Assembly: GCA_003151625.1 (NCBI GenBank)
Contig: PLYC01000021.1
Location: forward strand, 16,235-80,234
Direction: 5' to 3'
Length of the DNA: 64,000 nt
DNA from: Candidatus Doudnabacteria bacterium
GTDB lineage: Bacteria > Patescibacteriota > Doudnabacteria > UBA920
Part shown: piece by piece, positions 911-54,000 of the stretch
Layout of the letters: the number at the start of each line of letters is the position of its first letter
Numbering within the stretch: position 1 is the stretch's first letter
Made by a program: the position numbers and the translations under genes
The notes under the pieces: model-generated
Databases searched by the model: none
What the model saw: the letters and a program-made list of their open reading frames with translations, nothing else
Told to the model about the DNA's origin: nothing

Positions 911-1156
911 ATGAGACCATCCAATAACAGAGACCGAGACAGCCAGCCCCAAATAAAAAAACAGTGCTATTTTTGCTCAAACAAAATTAGCACCGTAGAC
1001 TACAAAGATACGCAAACCCTGCGCCGCTTTATGTCGCCCCATGCCAAAATTATGAACCATAACCGCACCGGTACTTGCCCCAAGCACCAGCGCATGGTCA
1101 CCAAAGCCCTCAAGCAAGCCAGACATATGGCGTTATTGCCGTTTGTTGCAGCCTAA
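911..1156 (+). CDS. rpsR: 30S ribosomal protein S18
   Basis: S18 hallmarks: 'CYFC', 'DYKD', 'LRRF' and a C-terminal 'ALLPF'. A TATAAT box at ~879-884 sits upstream. Confidence 0.9.
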   Translation: MRPSNNRDRDSQPQIKKQCYFCSNKISTVDYKDTQTLRRFMSPHAKIMNHNRTGTCPKHQRMVTKALKQARHMALLPFVAA

Positions 1157-1300
1157 TTAATACATCGAATTAACGAATAGAACGACACAGTCATCCGACG
1201 TGTCGCCCTGTCGAATGACAGGGCGAATCTACGAAGAACAACGAATTCGCAGATTCACAAATATTCGTTGATTCGTCTCATTCGTAGATTCGATATATTT

Positions 1301-2693: not shown

Positions 2694-5630
2694 TTATTGC
2701 ATCCGTGAATCCCCGGAAGTCATAGGGGAAAGAATGTACAGGCGGAAGTCATAGGAGTTGGCCGGGACCACAAATGAGGCTTGGCCGCCATTGTTTAGGA
2801 AAGTGTTCCAGTCGGGAACCGGAATTAGGCCGCTTTGGTGGACAAAATAAATGGTTTGGCCGCTTTTTATCCAGCTGCCCCAGGGGTGATGGACTGCCGT
2901 TGTTGATACGGTATAACCGGAGTCGGCCAAACCTGAATTACCAACCGCCACGACATTGCCAAATTTATATCCTAATCCCAAAAATACGGAGGCACTCGTA
3001 AAAGCAGTTTTGGTATTTTTATAAACTATATACACGGTTGAGCCTTCGGAAATTAGCTGGCCGTTTGCGTAAGCGCTGGCGCCAAGGACGCTGCTTGAAC
3101 CTCCCGGATACTGCAAGCTACCGCCGCCGTTGTTATTGTAAGGATAACCGCTGTTATAAGAATAGCCACCAACGGTAACATATAAACTCTGGCAGGAGTT
3201 GGCGCTGTTTTGGCAAATTTGCAGGGTGGAACTGCCGTTGCTAATTCCGTAAATAGTTATCACGCTACCGTTAAAGCTGGCGGAAATAACGCCGGGGTTG
3301 CTGTTGGAAGAAATATAATAGCCATATCCGCCGTTGCCGGAAACGTTCACCGTGGCGCTCTGGCCGACATTTAAACCTAAAGATGATTGGCTTAATATAA
3401 TATTATTGCCGCCGTAGCCATAACCATTAACGCTAACATATACGCTGGCGCACTGGCTAGAACTTGAGCCGCACAATACTATTGTGCTGCTGCCAGAACT
3501 TTGCCCATAAAAAGTAGCCTGGTTGACCGAAACACTTACCGAAACCACACCGGAATTGCTGTTGGAAGAAACATAAACAGAGGGCACATTGTAAGCCGAA
3601 ATAATCATGCTTTGACCCTGGCTTAAACTTAAACTAGTCTGGCTTAAAGACAGACTGCCACCGTAATTATTAGAAGATCCGCCACCGACTGTTACATAAA
3701 GCGTGCCGCAAAATCCCAAAGCCGTACTGCAAACAGAAATATTGCTGGAACCGTTTTGATTGGCGGTTAAATTTAATACCGTGCCCGAAATATTCGCGGA
3801 CACAACATAAGGACTGCTGTTGGAAGAAATATAATATGCGCTGGAATTATTTAAGTAAGATGTGGCATAGGAACTGCTATTAACAGAAACCGCCAGGCTT
3901 TGCCCAACATAAAGAGTAGGATTAGCCGGACTAAACCACAGGTTGGTGTTGGCTCCCAAAACCCCGCTGACCGTAACATAAAGGGTCGCGCAGGAAGAAC
4001 TATTAGAACTTTGGCAAACTAAAACATTGGTGTTACCGGCGCTTAAAGCGTTAACATATATGCTGCTGCCGGACATGCTGGCCGATGCAACACCGGAGTT
4101 GGAATTGCTGGAAATATAATAACTTCCGTAAGAAATGTTGTTGTTGTAAACGGCAACTGTCGCGCTTTGTCCGGAATTCAAAGACAGGCTGGAAGGACTA
4201 AAAGAAATTGTCCCCGAACTTCCGTTGCCGCCAACCGTAACATATAAGCTTACACAGGAAGAAATATTACTCGCGCAAATGCTTATAGTGCTGGAGCCAA
4301 CAGCCAAACCGTAAAGGCTAATGTTGTTTCCAGAGATGCTGGCCGATGCAACGCTGGAATTGCCATTGTTGGAAATATAAATGCTGTTGCCGTTATTGTA
4401 AGCCGTGACCACAGAAGTTTGGCCAATATTTAAGCTGACGCTGGTCTGGCTTAAAGAAAAAGAACCAATACCGCTGCCGCCGCCAACAGTTACATACAAG
4501 TAACCGCAAGTAGAATTACTCTGGCATACCGTAATTGTGCTGCTGCCAGTGCTCCCCGCCTGCAAATAAAGGGAACTGCCGGTAATGCTGGCAGACACGA
4601 TGCTCGAATTGCTGTTGTTGGAAATGTAAAGAGAAGTTCCAAAATACGAGGCAGAAATAAAGACAGTGGAGCTTTGGCCAACCGATAAATTTACAGAGCT
4701 GGGACTAAAAGTTATTGAGCCGGAACTGCTGCCGCCGCCAACTGTCACATACAAGGTTGCGCACTGGCTGGAACTATTTTGGCAAATACTAATGTTGGTT
4801 GAACCGTTACTAATTCCGTTAACATAAACCGTATTGCCCGAAACGCTGGCGCCGGCCACCGAAGAGTTGCTGTTGCCGGAAATGTAAGCTGAAGATCCGC
4901 TGTTGTATCCATAAACGGTAACCGTGGAGCTTTGGCCAACCGTTAAAGATAAACTAGTCTGGCTCAAAGAAAGACTGCCGGAACCGCATCCGTTGTAGCA
5001 ACTGCCGCCGTTGACTGTGGCATATAAAGTGGCGCAAGAGCTGCTACTGTTGGAACAAACACTAATGTTTGTTGAGCCGCTAACCAATCCATAAACGTTT
5101 ACCTGATTACCGGAAGCGGTCGCGGAAGCGACGCTCGGATTAGAATTGCTGGAAACGTAAAAACTATTACTCTGACCATAAACAGGATAGCTTGCGGTTA
5201 CAGAAGCGGTTTGGCCGACGTTTAAGCTTAGGCTGGTCTGACTCAAAGTTAATCCGCCCACATTGCATCCACTGTAACCGCAGCCGTTATTATTATAGTT
5301 ATTGCCGTTATTGTATCCGTAATTGTTGCTATAGACCTGCTGGCCGCCAACTGTGGCGTTAATTTGCGAACCCACGGCAGAATCAACCATAGTCATAAAA
5401 TTTCCGCTGTAATCCGTGAACCCGCTGACGCTAGTCAGTAAACTGCTGCCGGAAGGCGTGTAATTTATAGCCACTGCGGCGTTAGGCTGGCCGCCGCTAA
5501 TGGAAACTGTCGTGCTGTTTCCGGAGGAATAAACGCTTAATGTTGGGCTATAGGCCAAAACCGAACCGGCAAAACCCATAAAAAAGCTTATAAATAAAGC
5601 AAAAATTAAGCTTTTTGATAATGTCTTCAT
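2694..5630 (-). CDS. Large secreted surface protein with about nine tandem bacterial Ig-like (Big_2-like) repeats; Ser/Gly/Asn-rich
   Basis: N-terminal signal peptide 'MKTLSKSLIFALFISFFMGFAGSVLA'. Units of about 90 aa repeat on the pattern 'LSLSQTSLSLNVGQ[ST]A[ST]VTA...SSN.NSSVASA...G...V.G...GS.NISVC..SSS.CATLYVTVGGG', which resembles Big_2 domains. The DNA shows the same ~270-bp periodicity. Confidence 0.7.
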   Translation of the reverse strand: MKTLSKSLIFALFISFFMGFAGSVLAYSPTLSVYSSGNSTTVSISGGQPNAAVAINYTPSGSSLLTSVSGFTDYSGNFMTMVDSAVGSQINATVGGQQVYSNNYGYNNGNNYNNNGCGYSGCNVGGLTLSQTSLSLNVGQTASVTASYPVYGQSNSFYVSSNSNPSVASATASGNQVNVYGLVSGSTNISVCSNSSSSCATLYATVNGGSCYNGCGSGSLSLSQTSLSLTVGQSSTVTVYGYNSGSSAYISGNSNSSVAGASVSGNTVYVNGISNGSTNISICQNSSSQCATLYVTVGGGSSSGSITFSPSSVNLSVGQSSTVFISASYFGTSLYISNNSNSSIVSASITGSSLYLQAGSTGSSTITVCQSNSTCGYLYVTVGGGSGIGSFSLSQTSVSLNIGQTSVVTAYNNGNSIYISNNGNSSVASASISGNNISLYGLAVGSSTISICASNISSCVSLYVTVGGNGSSGTISFSPSSLSLNSGQSATVAVYNNNISYGSYYISSNSNSGVASASMSGSSIYVNALSAGNTNVLVCQSSNSSSCATLYVTVSGVLGANTNLWFSPANPTLYVGQSLAVSVNSSSYATSYLNNSSAYYISSNSSPYVVSANISGTVLNLTANQNGSSNISVCSTALGFCGTLYVTVGGGSSNNYGGSLSLSQTSLSLSQGQSMIISAYNVPSVYVSSNSNSGVVSVSVSVNQATFYGQSSGSSTIVLCGSSSSQCASVYVSVNGYGYGGNNIILSQSSLGLNVGQSATVNVSGNGGYGYYISSNSNPGVISASFNGSVITIYGISNGSSTLQICQNSANSCQSLYVTVGGYSYNSGYPYNNNGGGSLQYPGGSSSVLGASAYANGQLISEGSTVYIVYKNTKTAFTSASVFLGLGYKFGNVVAVGNSGLADSGYTVSTTAVHHPWGSWIKSGQTIYFVHQSGLIPVPDWNTFLNNGGQASFVVPANSYDFRLYILSPMTSGDSRMQ

Positions 5631-13264: not shown

Positions 13265-13465
13265 ATAAAGGTTCCTCGGAGCTTAAGCTCTCGAGGTATT
13301 AGTGCAATGAGCTGCCTGCATTTCGCAGTCCGCCCGCCTAAGGCGGGCGGACGAAGTATTGAACCTGTATTAGCTCCTCGCCCATTCGACAGCGCTCAGG
13401 GCGACCCTGAGTTATACCGAACGGATCGGCTCGCCCCGCCAGGGCGGGATCTCACTCTACGTCGC
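13265..13465 (+). repeat. MITE-like interspersed repeat, copy 1 (about 200 bp)
   Basis: Shares the blocks 'ataaaggttcctcggag', 'ctgcatttcgcagtccgcc', 'taaggcgg', 'acgaagtattgaacctgtatta' and 'ccccgccagggcggg...ctctacgtcgc' with the reverse complements of 14932-15024 and 20181-20343. Confidence 0.65.
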
Positions 13466-13767
13466 AAATAAAAAAAATAATTCGACAATCGAGAACGACC
13501 GCCCCAACGATTAACCAAGCCTCCGACAAAATTAACGGAATTAAAAGATAAAATCGAATATAGCCATAAATTGGAATCAATTTTTACTAATGGCGGCACT
13601 GGACGAAAATATACGGGAAGTATGACAACTTTTTTATTTTCTTTCTTAAACCACAATTTTATAACCGATTCTGAAACTATTCCTATCTAATAAGCGTAAC
13701 ATTAGCACCTAGGACAATTAAGCGAACTATATTATTTACTATCATTATATTGAAAGGGAAAACAAGA

Positions 13768-14882: not shown

Positions 14883-14931
14883 ATTTTTCCTTACCGCTTA
14901 ACAACATAATAATTAAGCTTTTAATTTATTC

Positions 14932-15024
14932 GCGACGTAGAGGGAGGCCCCGCCCTGGCGGGACGCCCAAGGAGTCTAAATACAGGTTCAATACCTCGGG
15001 ACTTGCGGAGAGTGAACCTTTATT
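14932..15024 (-). repeat. MITE-like repeat, copy 2 (truncated, about 93 bp)
   Basis: 'gcgacgtagag...ccccgccctggcggg...aatacaggttcaatacctcg...gaacctttatt' is the reverse complement of the copy-1 ends. Confidence 0.55.
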
Positions 15025-20180: not shown

Positions 20181-20343
20181 GCTGTGTAGAGCGAGTGAAA
20201 GTCATCCGCCTAAGGCGGATAACCTTCCGAGCCCAAGGAGTCTTAATACAGGTTCAATACCTCGTCCGCCTTAGGCGGACTGCAAAATGCAGTCTGCTCT
20301 TTGGGCTCAATACCTTGGAGTTCTACTCCGAGGAACCTTTATT
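20181..20343 (-). repeat. MITE-like repeat, copy 3 (about 160 bp)
   Basis: Its reverse complement begins 'ataaaggttcctcggag' and carries 'ctgcattttgcagtccgcc...taaggcgg...acgaggtattgaacctgtatta', matching copy 1 block for block. Its terminus supplies the last codons and the stop of the 818-aa gene. Confidence 0.6.
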
Positions 20344-23938: not shown

Positions 23939-24013
23939 GGCGCTATCATCTAATGGTTAGGATAAGTGGTTTTCATCCACTAAATCGGGGTTCGATTCCC
24001 CGTAGCGCTACCA
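23939..24013 (+). tRNA. tRNA-Glu (anticodon UUC), CCA encoded
   Basis: Manual fold. Acceptor GGCGCTA/TAGCGCT with a G1-U72 wobble. Anticodon stem AGTGG/CCACT with loop TTTTCAT. T-arm CGGGG-TTCGATT-CCCCG. Discriminator A plus CCA. Confidence 0.75.
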
Positions 24014-36535: not shown

Positions 36536-36631
36536 AATTGTGATGTAATCATAACAATGATGAAATACTTTGTCAATATGGATAGTTATTTGGATATAAA
36601 TTTAAGAAAATACCCTTTATTTATGGGTATT

Positions 36632-36790
36632 TTGCTTCCTTATGGCTTTTTATTGTAATTCTGGATCCCGTCCAGTCAAGGGTAAAACCAAATTATTTGC
36701 CATAGGCCATAAATTGGTTTTAATCCCGTTGACTGTCCAGGCGTTCCAGAATTTTGTTTTCGCCATAATCAGTAAGCAAAAAAGATTATG
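36632..36790 (+). promoter_or_regulatory. Conserved ~160-bp intergenic module, copy A (divergent region between abiEi and the radC-like gene)
   Basis: Aligns along its length with 38489-38651. Shared blocks: 'ttgcttccttatggctt', 'gtcaagggtaaa', 'tttatttgcc.t.ggccataaa', 'tttaatccc.ttgactg' and 'gccataat.agtaa'. The hairpin positions carry compensatory differences between the copies. Confidence 0.6.
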
Positions 36791-38413: not shown

Positions 38414-38488
38414 AAAATTTTCATTATTTATAGCACTATTTTAAAACTTTACTAATATAAAGTCAATTTTGCAAAAAAACCAATTCCT

Positions 38489-38651
38489 TTGCTTCCTTAT
38501 GGCTTCTCATTATACTGGCCGTTTACGGCCGGTCAAGGGTAAATTTCATTTATTTGCCGTGGGCCATAAAATCAATTTAATCCCTTGACTGCCGTAACCT
38601 GCGGCCAGTATATGATTGCCATAATAAGTAATCAAGAAAGGAGTTAATATG
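38489..38651 (+). promoter_or_regulatory. Conserved ~160-bp intergenic module, copy B
   Basis: See copy A. Hairpin 'ctggccgtttacggccgg' here versus 'ctggatcccgtccag' in A. A downstream 'ggccag' here versus 'tccag' in A. Confidence 0.6.
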
Positions 38652-41782: not shown

Positions 41783-42997
41783 CTATTCCTTAGTTTCATC
41801 AGCTTTAACTTCTTCAACTGCTACCGCTTCTTTTGAAGCTTCCGATGTTTCCGCAACAGTTTCCTCGCCACCTAGTTTTTCCCCGTTAATATCTATTTTC
41901 CATCCCGTCAAACGCGCGGCGAGGCGGACGTTTTGTCCGGCTTTGCCAATGGCTAAAGACAACTGATCTTCTAACACGCCGACTTTGGCTTCTTTGGCTT
42001 GGTCGTTTAATTGGACGTTTAAAATTTTGGCCGGTGAAAGAGCGTTGGCAATAAATTTTACCTGGTCATCGGAAAATTCTATAATATCAATTTTCTCCCC
42101 GCCCAGTTCGGCCATTACGGTTTGCACTCGGCTGCCCTTTTGCCCCACGCAACTGCCAATTGGGTCTATGCCGTCCTGGTTACTAAACACGGCAATTTTG
42201 GAGCGCGAACCCGCTTCCCTGGCCAGGGCTTTAATTTCCACACTGCCGTTAAAAATTTCCGGCACTTCCAGTTCAAAAAGCTTGCGCACCATATCGGGAT
42301 GCGAACGGGACAAAGTAATTTTTGGCCCCTTAGTAGCCGGTTCAACATGGAGGATTAAAACTTTTATGCGCTGGCCAATGGTATATTTTTCCCCGCGAAT
42401 TTGCTCGCTGGGGAACAGCACGCCGGCGGCTTTGCCTAAGTCTACCAGCACGGTGTCGCCTTCCACTCTCTGGACAACCCCGTTTTGCAAAGTGCGCTCT
42501 TTGGCTTTGAAATCGGAAAACTGAACATTTCTTTCGGCTTCGCGTAATTTTTGGATAATAACCTGCTTGGCGGTTTGCGCGGCAATGCGGCCGTACGAGG
42601 TGCCGGTTTTGGGAGTGATTTCCGTGCGGATTTCGTCACCGACTTTGTGTTTATGAGATTTTTTTCCGCCGGTCGTTCGAGACCCTGAGGGGTCCTCAGA
42701 CCCCCGAAGGGAGGAGGATCCGCCTTTGGCGGAAATTTCCTGCGCCGCTTCCAGGGTAATGAATTTTTGGGGGTCTTCTTCCGCCTCGGTCTCGGTTTCT
42801 ACCACGGTTTTTACGTCAAAAACTTTGGTAGCCATATTCTCCGGGTCAAATTCCACCACAATATTCTGGTTCTTCTCGCCGTAATCTTTCCGGAAAGCCG
42901 CGGCCAAAGACGCTTCTATCATAGAAACTAAATCCTGGCGGCTAATGCCTTTTTCTTCTGCTATTTGGTCTAAAGCTTGTTCTAGCTGTTCGTTCAT
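41783..42997 (-). CDS. nusA: Transcription termination/antitermination factor NusA, carrying an in-frame repeat-element insertion in the N-terminal linker
   Basis: S1 'VVQRVEGDTVLVDLG', and KH domains 'GSRSKIAVFS' and 'IGSCVGQKGSRVQTVMAELGGEKIDII'. The insert 'GGSSSLRGSEDPSGSRTTGGK' is shared with tsaD. Confidence 0.9.
   Translation of the reverse strand: MNEQLEQALDQIAEEKGISRQDLVSMIEASLAAAFRKDYGEKNQNIVVEFDPENMATKVFDVKTVVETETEAEEDPQKFITLEAAQEISAKGGSSSLRGSEDPSGSRTTGGKKSHKHKVGDEIRTEITPKTGTSYGRIAAQTAKQVIIQKLREAERNVQFSDFKAKERTLQNGVVQRVEGDTVLVDLGKAAGVLFPSEQIRGEKYTIGQRIKVLILHVEPATKGPKITLSRSHPDMVRKLFELEVPEIFNGSVEIKALAREAGSRSKIAVFSNQDGIDPIGSCVGQKGSRVQTVMAELGGEKIDIIEFSDDQVKFIANALSPAKILNVQLNDQAKEAKVGVLEDQLSLAIGKAGQNVRLAARLTGWKIDINGEKLGGEETVAETSEASKEAVAVEEVKADETKE
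42667..42733 (-). repeat. Palindromic ~63-bp element inserted in-frame in nusA
   Basis: 'ggcggatcc.cctcccttcg.gggtctgaggacccctcagggtctcgaacgaccggcgg' is near-identical to 53751-53815 in tsaD. Confidence 0.7.
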
Positions 42998-43004
42998 TTT
43001 AATA

Positions 43005-43083
43005 CAAACTAATTAACACGGATTTAGAAACGAATGAACACGGATCTGTGTTAATTCGTCTGCGATATTAGTGTTCATCCGTG
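43005..43083. repeat. About 80-bp promoter-proximal repeat, copy 1, upstream of nusA
   Basis: 'caaactaattaacacggatttagaaacgaat.aacac.gatc.gtgtt.attcgt.tgc..tattagtgtt.at.cgt' is shared with 44066-44146. Confidence 0.6.
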
Positions 43084-43158
43084 GTTTCTAATAAAAAAGA
43101 TGAGCATCGCTCATCCAATGAATCTGTACAATCTTTTCTTCAACTGGTAACTGTAAAC

Positions 43159-43661: not shown

Positions 43662-44060
43662 TTATTTAGGTAAATATTTCAGCCTCACCTGCTCTTTTTC
43701 CCAAACGTCTTTTTCTTTTTTATAATTTTTAAGCATACCGGTTAAAATTGCAACCAGCCAAACAAGTCCGATTAAAACAATTAATAAAGCCACAAAATGG
43801 GTGCCAAAAAACATGGCATTTTCATAACGGCACAGGTACCATAAAATTTCCACAAGCCCAATGCTCAAAAACAAATGATAAAACTTCTGCCTGTATTTGC
43901 CGTCCACGGGATTGGGCGCCAAAATCGAAGAAATTTTTAGCACAATGCTCAACAAAATTAAAATAACCCCACTCAAAAAAAACAGCTTTTCCCGCGGGCT
44001 AATGAAAGCTGTATTTATTTGAAAAAGGTTTTGGTAAGTAAATAACTGTTTTATGTTCAT
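43662..44060 (-). CDS. Hypothetical membrane protein (3-4 TM)
   Basis: Hydrophobic ORF. Preceded by repeat copy 2. Confidence 0.4.
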   Translation of the reverse strand: MNIKQLFTYQNLFQINTAFISPREKLFFLSGVILILLSIVLKISSILAPNPVDGKYRQKFYHLFLSIGLVEILWYLCRYENAMFFGTHFVALLIVLIGLVWLVAILTGMLKNYKKEKDVWEKEQVRLKYLPK

Positions 44061-44065
44061 ATAAA

Positions 44066-44146
44066 TTCAAACTAATTAACACGGATTTAGAAACGAATTT
44101 ACACAGATCAGTGTTCATTCGTTTGCAGTATTAGTGTTTATTCGTT
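44066..44146. repeat. About 80-bp promoter-proximal repeat, copy 2
   Basis: See 43005-43083. Confidence 0.6.
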
Positions 44147-44150
44147 ATTG

Positions 44151-44678
44151 CTACTTCTCGTACAATACCGCGTAGTGATAGCCATCGGCCTGGAGGTCTT
44201 TGTCTTTTCGGAAACCCGCGGACTGCAGCATAATTTCCAGTTTTTCCTGATCCAATCTCTTGTCCAGCGGCGGACCAAAAGGAGTGGCGGTGCGTTTCCA
44301 TTCTACCGCGACCACGCGCCCGCCGGATTTTAACACGCGATAAATGTTTTTAATCAATTCCTGTTTTTGGTCTATTTCGTGCAAAATACTGCCAATAATA
44401 ACCAAGTCGCAGGAGCCGGGCAAAATATCCAAAAGCGGTTTGCTTAAATTGGCCTGAATAACCCGCACATTTTTATATCCAAACTGGTTGGCAATGGAAA
44501 TTGTGGCGGCCAATTTAACCGTTTGTACGTCAACCGCGTAAACCGTTCCGGTGGGGCCAATCATTTGCGCGGCCGGTAAAACATAAAACCCGTTGCCGCA
44601 GCCCAAGTCTGCCACTGTCTGGCCCATCATAAGCCCTGTTTGCGCCATAACAGCGCTTGGATTTAAAAATTGACTCAT
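44151..44678 (-). CDS. Class I SAM-dependent methyltransferase
   Basis: Motif I 'VADLGCGNGFY', with acidic motifs II/III. Confidence 0.7.
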   Translation of the reverse strand: MSQFLNPSAVMAQTGLMMGQTVADLGCGNGFYVLPAAQMIGPTGTVYAVDVQTVKLAATISIANQFGYKNVRVIQANLSKPLLDILPGSCDLVIIGSILHEIDQKQELIKNIYRVLKSGGRVVAVEWKRTATPFGPPLDKRLDQEKLEIMLQSAGFRKDKDLQADGYHYAVLYEK

Positions 44679-52827: not shown

Positions 52828-54000
52828 ATGACAAAAAAAATTTTAGCCATAGAAACCAGTTGTGACGAAACAGCGGCGGCAGTTTTGGAATTGCGCGATA
52901 GCAAAACTTGGCCGAAAATAGCTTCGCTTTCTTCCGTGGTCAAATCCCAAATTTCCCTCCATAAATCTTTTGGCGGGGTGGTGCCGGAAGTTGCGGCGCG
53001 GGCGCACGTAAAAAATATTTTACCGGTCGTAAAAAAAGTCCTGTCAGACAGCAATTTAACAAAGACAAGTGAAATTCACGGCCGTGAATTTCACTTGTCT
53101 TTGCAAAAAATAGATTATATTGCGGTAACCGTAGGACCTGGTTTAATTCCCTCACTAATTGTGGGCGTGGAATTTGCCAAAGCGCTTTCACTGGCAACCG
53201 GCAAACCGATTATCCCTGTCAACCATATGTTGGGACACCTGTACTCGCCATTCGGAAAATTGGAAAATGAGGAAATTGAAAAATTATTTCCAATGATTTC
53301 ACTAATAGTTTCGGGTGGTCACACAATAATTGTGCTTATAAAAAATATTAAAGAATACAAAGTCCTGGGACAAACCGTGGACGATGCCGCGGGAGAAGCT
53401 TTTGATAAAGTCGCAAAACTCCTTGGCCTCCCCTATCCCGGAGGCCCCGAGGTCAGTAGGCTGGCCAAACTGTCTAAATCTTCCGCGATTGTGTTTCCGC
53501 GGCCAATGATAAACAGTAAAAATTATGATTTTTCTTTTTCCGGCCTAAAAACCGCGGTACTATATTATTTGCGCGACAACCCAAACGCGAAAAAAGAAGA
53601 CGTCTGTAAAGCTTTCCAGGAAGCCGCCGTAGACGTCCTGGCTACCAAAACCATGCGCGCCGCAAAAGAATATGGGGCAAAGTCAGTCAGCCTGTCCGGA
53701 GGCGTAGCCGCTAACGAACCCTTACGGAGCGCCTTAAATCTTTCCGCCAGAGGCGGATCCGCCTCCCTTCGAGGGTCTGAGGACCCCTCAGGGTCTCGAA
53801 CGACCGGCGGAAAATCTAAAATCTTAAACCCGTCTCGTTCGACGCGAGCCGAGGCGGATCTGAATTTTTTTGTTCCCCAAAAAAATTTATGCACTGACAA
53901 CGCCGAAATGATAGGCGTGGCCGCCTGCTTTATGCTGCACAACGGGTTTAAGCCAAAAAACTACAAGCAAATTAAGGCCGACCCGAACCTTGAACTTTAA
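52828..54000 (+). CDS. tsaD: tRNA N6-adenosine threonylcarbamoyltransferase (Kae1/Gcp family), with an in-frame ~35-aa repeat-element insertion near the C-terminus
   Basis: 'ILAIETSCDETAAAV', 'GVVPEVAARAHV', 'GPGLIPSLIVGVEFAK', 'SGGVAAN' and 'LCTDNAEMIG'. The insertion 'RGGSASLRGSEDPSGSRTTGGKSKILNPSRSTRAEAD' sits between 'ALNLSA' and 'LNFFVP'. Confidence 0.85.
   Translation: MTKKILAIETSCDETAAAVLELRDSKTWPKIASLSSVVKSQISLHKSFGGVVPEVAARAHVKNILPVVKKVLSDSNLTKTSEIHGREFHLSLQKIDYIAVTVGPGLIPSLIVGVEFAKALSLATGKPIIPVNHMLGHLYSPFGKLENEEIEKLFPMISLIVSGGHTIIVLIKNIKEYKVLGQTVDDAAGEAFDKVAKLLGLPYPGGPEVSRLAKLSKSSAIVFPRPMINSKNYDFSFSGLKTAVLYYLRDNPNAKKEDVCKAFQEAAVDVLATKTMRAAKEYGAKSVSLSGGVAANEPLRSALNLSARGGSASLRGSEDPSGSRTTGGKSKILNPSRSTRAEADLNFFVPQKNLCTDNAEMIGVAACFMLHNGFKPKNYKQIKADPNLEL
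53751..53860 (+). repeat. Palindromic element (~63-bp core plus ~40-bp partial duplication) inserted in-frame in tsaD, flanked by GAGGCGGATC direct repeats
   Basis: The core is near-identical to the nusA copy. 'gaggcggatc' occurs at 53751 and 53851. An internal near-duplicate, 'gtctcgaacgac' / 'gtctcgttcgac'. Confidence 0.7.

Follow-up and report, generated by a model that had tools for sequence, protein, structure and literature searches.

The stretch analysed here (the window) is 64,000 nt of contig PLYC01000021.1 from Candidatus Doudnabacteria bacterium, an ultra-small member of the candidate phyla radiation (CPR, Patescibacteria), and the subject is a short palindromic element that lies in frame in two of its genes, nusA and tsaD. 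The nusA gene (41783..42997, minus strand) encodes a protein of 404 aa with the Pfam domains NusA_N, S1, KH_5 and KH_NusA_C, for which 8000 homologues were found at E <= 1e-30. The tsaD gene (52828..54000, plus strand) encodes a protein of 390 aa that matched Pfam TsaD with E = 2e-86. The repeat search showed that the two genes share a 74-nt repeat, an inverted pair at 42662-42735 and 53741-53814 with 96% identity (71/74). The 33-nt centre of the repeat had 2 exact matches in the window, against 0 expected from 100 dinucleotide-preserving shuffles. The GC content of the element was 65%, whereas the averages of the 4-kb bins of the window were 36–47%. Both copies lie on the coding strand and in the same reading frame, with the translation GGS[S/A]SLRGSEDPSGSRTTGGK. 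The initial annotation, which had reported this pair as more than 90% identical and alike in orientation and frame, gave the repeat sequence, its coordinates and its hairpin CTGAGG-ACC-CCTCAG as we found them.

The insert had been described as a palindrome of about 63 bp placed in frame. It is palindromic and in frame, but its size is 69 nt and it consists of two nested units, an outer shell of 30 nt and a core of 39 nt. The composite in tsaD (TTCCGCC...GGCGG; 53742..53810, plus strand) lies between AAATCT and AAAATCT and encodes SARGGSASLRGSEDPSGSRTTGG. The 5′ part of its shell (53742..53765) comprises TT, hairpin 1 (TCCGCC-AGA-GGCGGA), the 5′ arm TCCGCC of hairpin 2 and the loop bases TC; the core (53766..53804) equals the family consensus CC-TTCGA-GGGTC-TGAG-GACCC-CTCA-GGGTC-TCGAAC-GAC; and the 3′ part of the shell (53805..53810) comprises one loop base C and GGCGG. 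The composite in nusA (42666..42734, minus strand) encodes SAKGGSSSLRGSEDPSGSRTTGG, approximately residues 90-112 of NusA. The 5′ part of its shell (42711..42734) has hairpin 1 as TCCGCC-AAA-GGCGGA, a 5′ arm of hairpin 2 mutated to TCCTCC and the loop bases TC, and the 3′ part (42666..42671) has the loop base C followed by GGCGG, the 3′ arm of hairpin 2. The nusA core, CCTTCGGGGGTCTGAGGACCCCTCAGGGTCTCGAACGAC (42672..42710, minus strand), has one stem mismatch relative to the family consensus and corresponds exactly to what the shell-only orthologue L042 lacks. Profile searches detected no third copy of the core in the window (nhmmer), and none in the adjoining upstream 9.7 kb of the source contig (ENA ERZ27254241 k141_694420).

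The comparison of orthologues showed how the insert arose. NusA orthologues with 80–99% identity occur in three states at one site, with nothing, with the shell only, or with the shell and the core. Most orthologues at 80–93% identity have nothing at the insert site (for example P0006). The short form SAKGGSASGG, which is the shell (10–11 aa), was found in P0003, P0004, P0009, P0018, P0031 and P0040; as DNA it is 30 nt long and forms the tandem hairpins (TCCGCC-AAA-GGCGGA)(TCCGCC-TCC-GGCGGA). The full insert was found only in the window and in a strain with 99% identity, and it equals the shell-only form plus 39 nt within the loop of the second hairpin. The closest TsaD orthologue (P0122, locus L165) has near-identical flanking DNA and a clean 69-nt gap opposite 53742-53810, one of two clean gaps in its alignment with the window tsaD. 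The empty site in L165 reads AAATCT^AAAATCT, and its number of AAAATCT units equals that of the filled site, so there is no target-site duplication in tsaD. The length of 69 nt was fixed by this empty site, and the boundaries of the nusA insert were set by analogy with tsaD to within 1 nt. In the same loop, further TsaD orthologues have either only the shell or small inserts of other kinds. Relatives of both proteins without the segment were thus found, as the initial annotation had expected of a mobile repeat. The segment is an insertion and not an ancestral feature, it entered without target-site duplication, and it is nested.

A second clean GC-rich insertion of 30 nt, ACCCGTCTCGTTCGACGCGAGCCGAGGCGG, was observed in tsaD at 53828-53857, 17 nt downstream of the composite. 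It encodes approximately PSRSTRAEAD, it is missing from the otherwise near-identical L165 site, and it ends in GGCGG like the shell. No other copy of it was found in the related loci examined.

The shell consists of two tandem 15-nt hairpins, (TCCGCC-N3-GGCGGA) × 2, inserted just 5′ of AAAA. On the opposite strand it lies 3′ of TTTT, an insertion 3′ of a short specific sequence like those of the insertion sequences (IS) of the IS200/IS605 type. Shell-only copies were found in L003, L011, L025, L042, L061, L116 and L166, so the shell is dispersed too, and a run of at least three A directly follows it in all of them except L025 (AAG). The second loops of the shell-only copies were TCT, TCG, TCC and, in one copy (L003), TTT, while core-bearing shells read TC[core]N. 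This comparison identifies the core as a 39-nt insert placed after TC without duplication.

The core is built of alternating complementary 5-nt arms, GGGTC and GACCC, and its insertion point lies after ..CTC, which in the window is the loop of the second hairpin of the shell. As single-stranded DNA, either strand can form a hairpin of 6+6 bp (TTCGAG/CTCGAA and CTGAGG/CCTCAG) with a 3×3 internal loop and a 3-nt apical loop. Joining the ends of the core (GAC + CC) would re-create a full GACCC arm, which we give as an anatomical remark. Both units are multiples of 3 nt, GC-rich and free of stop codons in four of the six frames.

The degenerate metagenome scan revealed a sister variant of the core, v2, with the consensus GCC(G/A)TTCGAGGCTCTGAGGAGCCCTCAGGCTCTCGAAGAG, which was commoner than the form in the window (v1) among the matches listed. 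Five positions, fully linked, separate the variants: C/G/C/G/C in v1 and G/C/G/C/G in v2. With the core written as a chain of arms, xCC-loop-GGx'TC-TGAG-GAxCC-CTCA-GGx'TC-loop-GAx, these are the x/x' sites, so that adjacent arms and both termini remain complementary. The haplotypes comprised 77 v2, 2 canonical v1 and 9 that were one position off one haplotype, and 0 mixed both. The length was 39 nt in 38/40 v1 and 72/77 v2 copies, and it was held despite three sub-variants with offsetting +1/−1 changes. Immediately 5′ of the insert, 39/40 v1 copies have C, usually as part of CTC, and 77/77 v2 copies have G. That this invariant base is part of the target is indicated by the NusA comparison and by the loops of shell-only copies.

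The annotation had called for a search for further copies, and these were numerous, with many lying in frame in other conserved genes. The exact 22-mer GAGGACCCCTCAGGGTCTCGAA was found at 41 loci among 185,579 species-representative genomes, and the degenerate-pattern scan of metagenomes gave at least 120 stretches. The hosts of the 22-mer were metagenome-assembled genomes (MAGs) of Doudna-, Peri-, Uhr-, Kerfeld- and Saccharibacteria or of unclassified Patescibacteria; the Uhrbacteria matches lay on 12 contigs of one MAG. Approximately 40 nt were conserved across these loci, and the flanks varied by lineage. The 22-mer was also found in three MAGs titled 'uncultured Gammaproteobacteria'. The GyrB of these MAGs has 692 aa including an insert, whereas E. 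coli GyrB is far longer, and the Gammaproteobacteria label was doubted for this reason. The label is probably a mistake; were it correct, the family would reach beyond CPR. The loci of these MAGs (L003, L010, L015, L025, L030 and L035) carry the same shell-plus-core composites as Saccharibacteria.

Many copies reside in genes. For v1, 52% of copies lay inside open reading frames (ORFs) of at least 150 aa, against 70% of random positions in the same loci; for v2 the proportions were 19% and 53%, and most v2 copies were intergenic. Among the hosts identified by Pfam are GyrB, where the insert separates Toprim from the C-terminal domain, FtsK, Pth, an RluD-like pseudouridine synthase, an alpha/beta hydrolase, GT4 glycosyltransferases, Cu-oxidase_4 and a radical SAM protein. 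An IleRS-type synthetase bears the identical peptide SAKGGSASFRGSEDPSGSRTTGGK, ArgRS carries two composites, and another class I synthetase is also a host. Further hosts were KsgA, DHFR, NAD(P)H-hydrate dehydratase and a metallophosphoesterase; hosts of v1 include GyrB, FtsK, IleRS, the RluD-like synthase and Pth, and those of v2 include ArgRS, KsgA and DHFR. Four frames are used, GSEDPSGSR and GLRTPQGLE in sense and FETLRGPQTL and RDPEGSSDP in antisense, and the two frames that contain stops were unused among intragenic copies. We found no gene that a copy had convincingly split, and one case was ambiguous. This frame use, together with the lack of convincingly split genes, is what read-through translation plus purifying selection predicts. 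Intragenic copies were oriented sense:antisense at 19:6 for v1 (p = 0.015) and 11:6 for v2, while copies between co-oriented genes were 14 sense and 15 antisense, with gene direction taken as a proxy for replication direction. The orientation bias exists only inside genes, so it looks like selection and not like an insertion preference.

The insert in nusA evolves faster than its host gene. Between the window and L044, the strain with 99% identity, differences affect 6/69 positions of the insert and 33/1146 of the remaining nusA positions (Fisher p = 0.02), and 3/5 amino-acid changes in NusA lie within the 23-aa insert. The comparison shows that the insert is under relaxed constraint, that is, a passenger. 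A peptide census with a concatenated four-frame query returned 7 word-sharing candidates and no scoring match, the query being too short. A 30-aa query from the window against 1.84 billion representatives returned one marginal match, and it was likewise too short to inform.

Sequence mapping to solved structures placed both inserts in turns. The NusA insert takes the place of a 3-residue turn (residues 86-88) of Thermotoga maritima NusA (1hh2). It therefore lies inside the N-terminal domain, which is why Pfam NusA_N is split into two stretches in the window protein; the annotation had located it in the linker after this domain, and that placement was incorrect. In TsaD, the composite and the neighbouring 30-nt insert jointly expand a 4-residue turn of the solved structure 8iey. 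The AlphaFold model of NusA was poor, with a mean predicted local distance difference test (pLDDT) score of 44.9 from a shallow orthologue alignment, so the placement rests on the mapping. In this model, residues 92-95 and 97-114, which span the insert, were of low confidence, and the insert itself was mostly coil, with a 3-residue strand at 95-97.

The position of the core inside the shell has parallels elsewhere. A stem of at least 5 bp abutted the core in 25% of v1 copies, against 7% with permuted flanks (maximum 18% in 200 permutations), and in 4% of v2 copies. A universal rule that the core always sits in a hairpin loop was rejected on these proportions. Copies of v2 were found inside a mid-tier palindrome, CCTTCGGGTCTGAGCCTCAGG..GTCGAAGAC, and no empty version of this mid-tier element was found among the related loci examined. 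A third level of nesting was observed in two Doudnabacteria MAGs (L021:~1430-1530 and L027:~4800-4900), in which a 42-nt v2-like unit lies within the CTGAGG stem of a v1 core. Two loci had cores 77–78 nt apart; with low-complexity spacers and two units only, they were not accepted as a CRISPR-like array.

A conserved hairpin-rich sequence of approximately 170 nt (...GGTTAAGACCCGTTAGAGATCCGATGCG..CCAAGGTCAGACCTTTACGCACCCGCCGTTTTTGCC) was observed in L059, L067, L077, L086, L087 (for example ~1000-1180, minus strand), L089, L094 and L145. It stands directly 5′ of v2 cores in L059, L077, L087, L089 and L145 and about 30 nt from a v2 core in L086; no core is adjacent to it in L067, L094 or a second copy in L077. 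It matched no Rfam family, and it may represent a further tier of elements or an RNA so far unknown.

Candidate transposases were sought by screening the ORFs of the related loci (L001-L164) and the window for an HUH...Y pattern, followed by Pfam. Six ORFs matched Y1_Tnp, and five of them form one RayT-like family: L117:1928-2675, L056:795-1626, L045:2314-3053, L006:55-770 and L129:11518-12268. Their only NCBIfam match was 'REP-associated tyrosine transposase' (REP, repetitive extragenic palindrome), with E = 1e-4 to 4e-17 and scores of 22–62 bits, below the curated cut-off of 80. Each gene is bracketed by its own hairpin pair, which is the layout of a REPtron; neither the core nor the TCCGCC shell is among these hairpins. 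To our knowledge, such REPtron-like units, found here on CPR-type contigs, have not been described for this clade. In L117, the hairpin flanking the RayT-like gene, AGCCTCGCAAGG-TCTCAC-CTTGCAAGGCT, recurs as the outermost shell of composites that lie in frame in the neighbouring ArgRS gene and consist of the mid-tier element and a v2 core. A DHFR gene on another contig contains a composite with this hairpin outermost as well. In the composites of L117 and L136, only the outermost shell matches a RayT flank. This outer shell is the only direct link from a transposase-type gene to these composites. An autonomous parent was rejected as a candidate: no transposase-like ORF was bounded by two cores, and both cores of the pair in L117 lie inside ArgRS.

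We propose that the element is a non-autonomous palindromic mobile DNA of two nested units, similar to REPs and to the Rickettsia palindromic elements (RPEs). The outer shell would insert without duplication immediately 5′ of an A-run, and the core would enter after ..CTC, in this case within the loop of the shell's second hairpin, and would likewise leave no duplication. Because the units are multiples of 3 nt and stop-free in four of six frames, tolerated copies would simply be translated. Those in tolerant surface turns would be read as hydrophilic Gly/Ser/Pro-rich loops and would persist even in essential genes, and persisting copies would then decay neutrally. A RayT/IS200-like HUH (Y1) transposase that acts on single-stranded hairpin DNA would mobilise the units in trans. 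Such a mode of movement would account for the hairpin substrate, the absence of duplication, the fixed flanking nucleotide and the liking for hairpin loops. We regard the descriptive part, a nested palindromic mobile element read through in frame, as very probable. The proposal as a whole, a two-unit REP/RPE-like element mobilised by an HUH enzyme, is probably the best explanation of the data. Its enzymatic part, the RayT/IS200-like mobilisation, has the best support among the possible mechanisms but is only tentatively put forward. We further speculate that the 39-nt core is a minimal HUH substrate whose internal unpaired triplets guide its own 3′ end and the target nucleotide; it would move as a 39-nt single-stranded DNA circle, insert preferentially into the hairpin loops of other palindromes and spread across CPR phyla. 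The guide role of the triplets would explain the five linked substitutions between v1 and v2, but we consider this detailed scheme rather unlikely.

Several observations weigh against this proposal. In the related loci, neither the core nor the TCCGCC shell was found to flank a RayT-like gene, and no RayT-like ORF was found in the window or in the 9.7 kb upstream. RayT-like genes occurred in 5 of about 165 related loci searched, and this may not imply enrichment. The hairpin of the core, taken alone, did not clearly exceed shuffled sequence in stability (z = −1.4 to −2.2). Loop targeting was a significant tendency for v1 and not a rule. Strand-specific insertion at replication forks received no support from the 14:15 orientation of intergenic copies. 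For the core to be nearly identical across phyla, either recent horizontal spread or a strongly conserved partner is required. Neither v1 nor v2 cores were found in the 2.9 million viral contigs of IMG/VR and the shell was found in two viral contigs only, so a phage vector was rejected.

The main rival explanation is spread without a dedicated transposase. Gene conversion or illegitimate recombination would move hairpin-prone DNA between sites, perhaps following natural uptake of DNA, and the core would be copied from shell to shell by homologous recombination. The NusA orthologues fit this course, since several relatives have the shell and only the window lineage has the core, and conversion of a shell-only copy would give the same outcome. 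The two composites of the window are 96% identical with the shell included, no cognate transposase was found in the related loci or the window, and REPs of the CGTC type have also been reported without a dedicated transposase (PMC3733652). However, tsaD went from an empty site to the full composite without flanking homology, and the flanks of many v1 and v2 cores are unrelated apart from one or two fixed nucleotides. The constant length of 39 nt and the exact junctions suggest site-specific cutting. We therefore consider spread by recombination improbable.

The insert could instead be a module selected by the host, either an mRNA hairpin acting in stability, pausing or processing or a useful peptide linker. 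The tsaD composite folds well as sense-strand RNA (−43.3 kcal/mol, z = −4.6), intragenic copies favour the sense orientation, and the core sequence is strongly conserved across lineages. The copies nevertheless occur in either orientation and in four frames, within unrelated proteins as well as between genes. The insert changes more quickly than the gene around it, stem pairs retained by the tsaD copy are lost from that of nusA, and close orthologues do without the insert. Nor did Rfam supply a family: in searches of Rfam 15, ribozymes included, with the window copy, six v2 loci and the whole window, no match came near the gathering score, and permissive thresholds gave only noise, so a known RNA or ribozyme was rejected. 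A selected module is accordingly very improbable. Two specific RNA candidates were also discarded. The sequence CUGAGGA fits the CUGANGA box of a hammerhead by eye, but no stem II/GAAA arrangement follows it, and for a tRNA-derived element ARAGORN found only tRNA-Glu at 23939.

A conventional MITE (miniature inverted-repeat transposable element), a deletion derivative of an IS with a DDE transposase that recognises terminal inverted repeats, is disfavoured and hardly to be believed here. The composite does have terminal inverted repeats, TTCCGCC...GGCGGAA, but these are merely the outer arms of the two tandem hairpins of the shell. No target-site duplication exists at the one perfectly resolved site (tsaD) or at the core junctions, and units of 30 and 39 nt are far below the 70–300 bp given for MITEs (PMC3733652). 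That the assembly is chimeric, or that the segment is an old, lineage-specific linker and only seems repeated, is refuted by independent assemblies from ENA, JGI, Logan and NCBI that carry the element, by the point differences in situ within the insert of L044, by the orthologues without the segment and by more than 100 further copies elsewhere.

Among known systems, REPs are the closest to the proposed two-unit element. The GTAG- and CGTC-tagged REPs have 20–40 nt (Di Nocera et al. 2013, PMC3733652). Intragenic REPs that encode 20–30 residues, often as dimers, have been described in Opitutus terrae (GTAG), in R. conorii (RPE-4/RPE-6, CGTC-type) and in others, within genes for replication, repair, tRNA synthetases and pseudouridine synthases (PMC3733652). 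Some REPs are nested in small CCGSSCC(n3,4)GGSSCGG palindromes, and CGTC REPs are without an identified transposase (PMC3733652). The 39-nt core and the 30-nt shell resemble REPs as short GC-rich imperfect palindromes with many dispersed copies, and they resemble the intragenic REPs in lying, in some cases, wholly in genes, in nesting within small palindromes and in the lack of an identified transposase shared with the CGTC type. The reverse complement of the core has NGTC (v1) or YCTC (v2) directly before the stem, with N variable outside Uhrbacteria; it is CGTC or TGTC in 12/12 Uhrbacteria copies, and the window copies have an extra G (GTCG). The differences are also clear. The core is without GTAG and without a CCA tail, and CGTC REPs have stems of 8–9 bp and loops of 4–5 nt in place of the 6+6 bp stem with 3×3 internal and 3-nt apical loops, so that the four described families differ from it. 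The core sequence had no match in the supplements of PMC3733652. REPs are mostly extragenic, whereas about half of the v1 copies are intragenic. The host clade here, CPR, is not listed in the REP survey (PMC3733652), and one core is common to several candidate phyla.

The initial annotation had compared the element with the palindromic elements of Rickettsia. RPE-1 and its relatives are cited as palindromic, translated and in frame in functional, often essential genes (Ogata et al. 2000, cited in PMC3184786 and PMC3733652), and RPEs are given as approximately 105–146 bp (PMC3184786). As far as these sources describe RPEs, the likeness lies in palindromic repeats carried in frame by functional genes, in tolerant surface segments. 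This part of the analogy stands, but the unit is REP-sized (30–39 nt) and not RPE-sized. Size (units of 30 and 39 nt, a composite of 69 nt) and an unrelated clade set the element apart from RPEs as those sources present them. We know of no sequence similarity between the two.

The REPtron/REPIN and IS200/IS605 systems share with the element a hairpin substrate, the absence of target duplication and a fixed nucleotide on one side of the insert. RayT-like genes with hairpin pairs occur in related loci, and one such hairpin is the outermost shell around a sister core. Unlike a REPtron, the element was not seen to flank a RayT-like gene with either its core or its TCCGCC shell, it lacks GTAG, and its intergenic copies showed no bias of orientation when gene direction served as the proxy for replication. 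The bacterial interspersed mosaic elements (BIMEs) of E. coli are mosaics of REP variants and linker motifs, arranged side by side as arrays in extragenic DNA. BIMEs are similarly modular and combinatorial in their use of small palindromic units; here, in contrast, the units lie one inside another and often within genes.

Other repeats were observed in and near the window. A 99-nt repeat with an internal inverted repeat (42992-43090 / 44055-44153, 84% identical) covers the upstream region, including the ATGAAC start, of nusA and of a 132-aa ORF (43662-44060); it could be a shared promoter or leader or another small repeat. A three-copy intergenic repeat (13320-13500, 14900-15020 and 20195-20300) has the conserved core AATACAGGTTCAATACCTCG and GC-rich hairpin flanks, among which are single TCCGCC-TAA-GGCGGA hairpins that resemble the shell's arms. 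One member has an extra CTCAGGGTCGCCCTGAG hairpin insert, and the repeat had no match in Rfam. Tandem repeats of approximately 258 nt (3244-5258) lie within a 978-aa ORF (2694-5630) with faint Big_2-like Pfam matches only, and a 97-nt direct repeat (36631-36727 / 38488-38584, 75% identical) has its copies 1.86 kb apart. Just upstream of the window on the source contig (L169:4203-7181), an HTH_36 protein and a large serine recombinase with Resolvase and Recombinase domains are encoded, preceded by several small ORFs without Pfam matches. This region may be an integrated element bordering the window.

The elements constitute a two-tier family of REP-sized palindromes that is common among CPR lineages and tolerated in frame in essential genes, and the interpretation offered by the initial annotation was essentially right, none of the refuting conditions it had named having held. 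Intragenic REPs and RPEs are already known; our literature searches found no description of such elements in CPR, for which this variant is apparently undescribed. Its interest lies in the conservation across phyla, the nesting, the five-position linkage of ends and internal triplets and the minimal-genome setting. CPR bacteria have tiny, gene-dense genomes that are usually called streamlined, and these genomes host palindromic parasites of 30–40 nt. The elements offer a concrete source for some of the unexplained short insertions in CPR proteins, and they mark very recent genome change and possibly horizontal exchange among CPR. Annotation and phylogenomics should treat such inserts with caution because they are homoplastic, arising independently in unrelated lineages. 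If the HUH reading is true, the units would be among the smallest natural transposable substrates, with a readable guide/target code. In the more detailed scheme of a guide-directed core, which we consider rather unlikely, Russian-doll composites would spread horizontally and steadily add loop segments to the essential proteins of reduced genomes.

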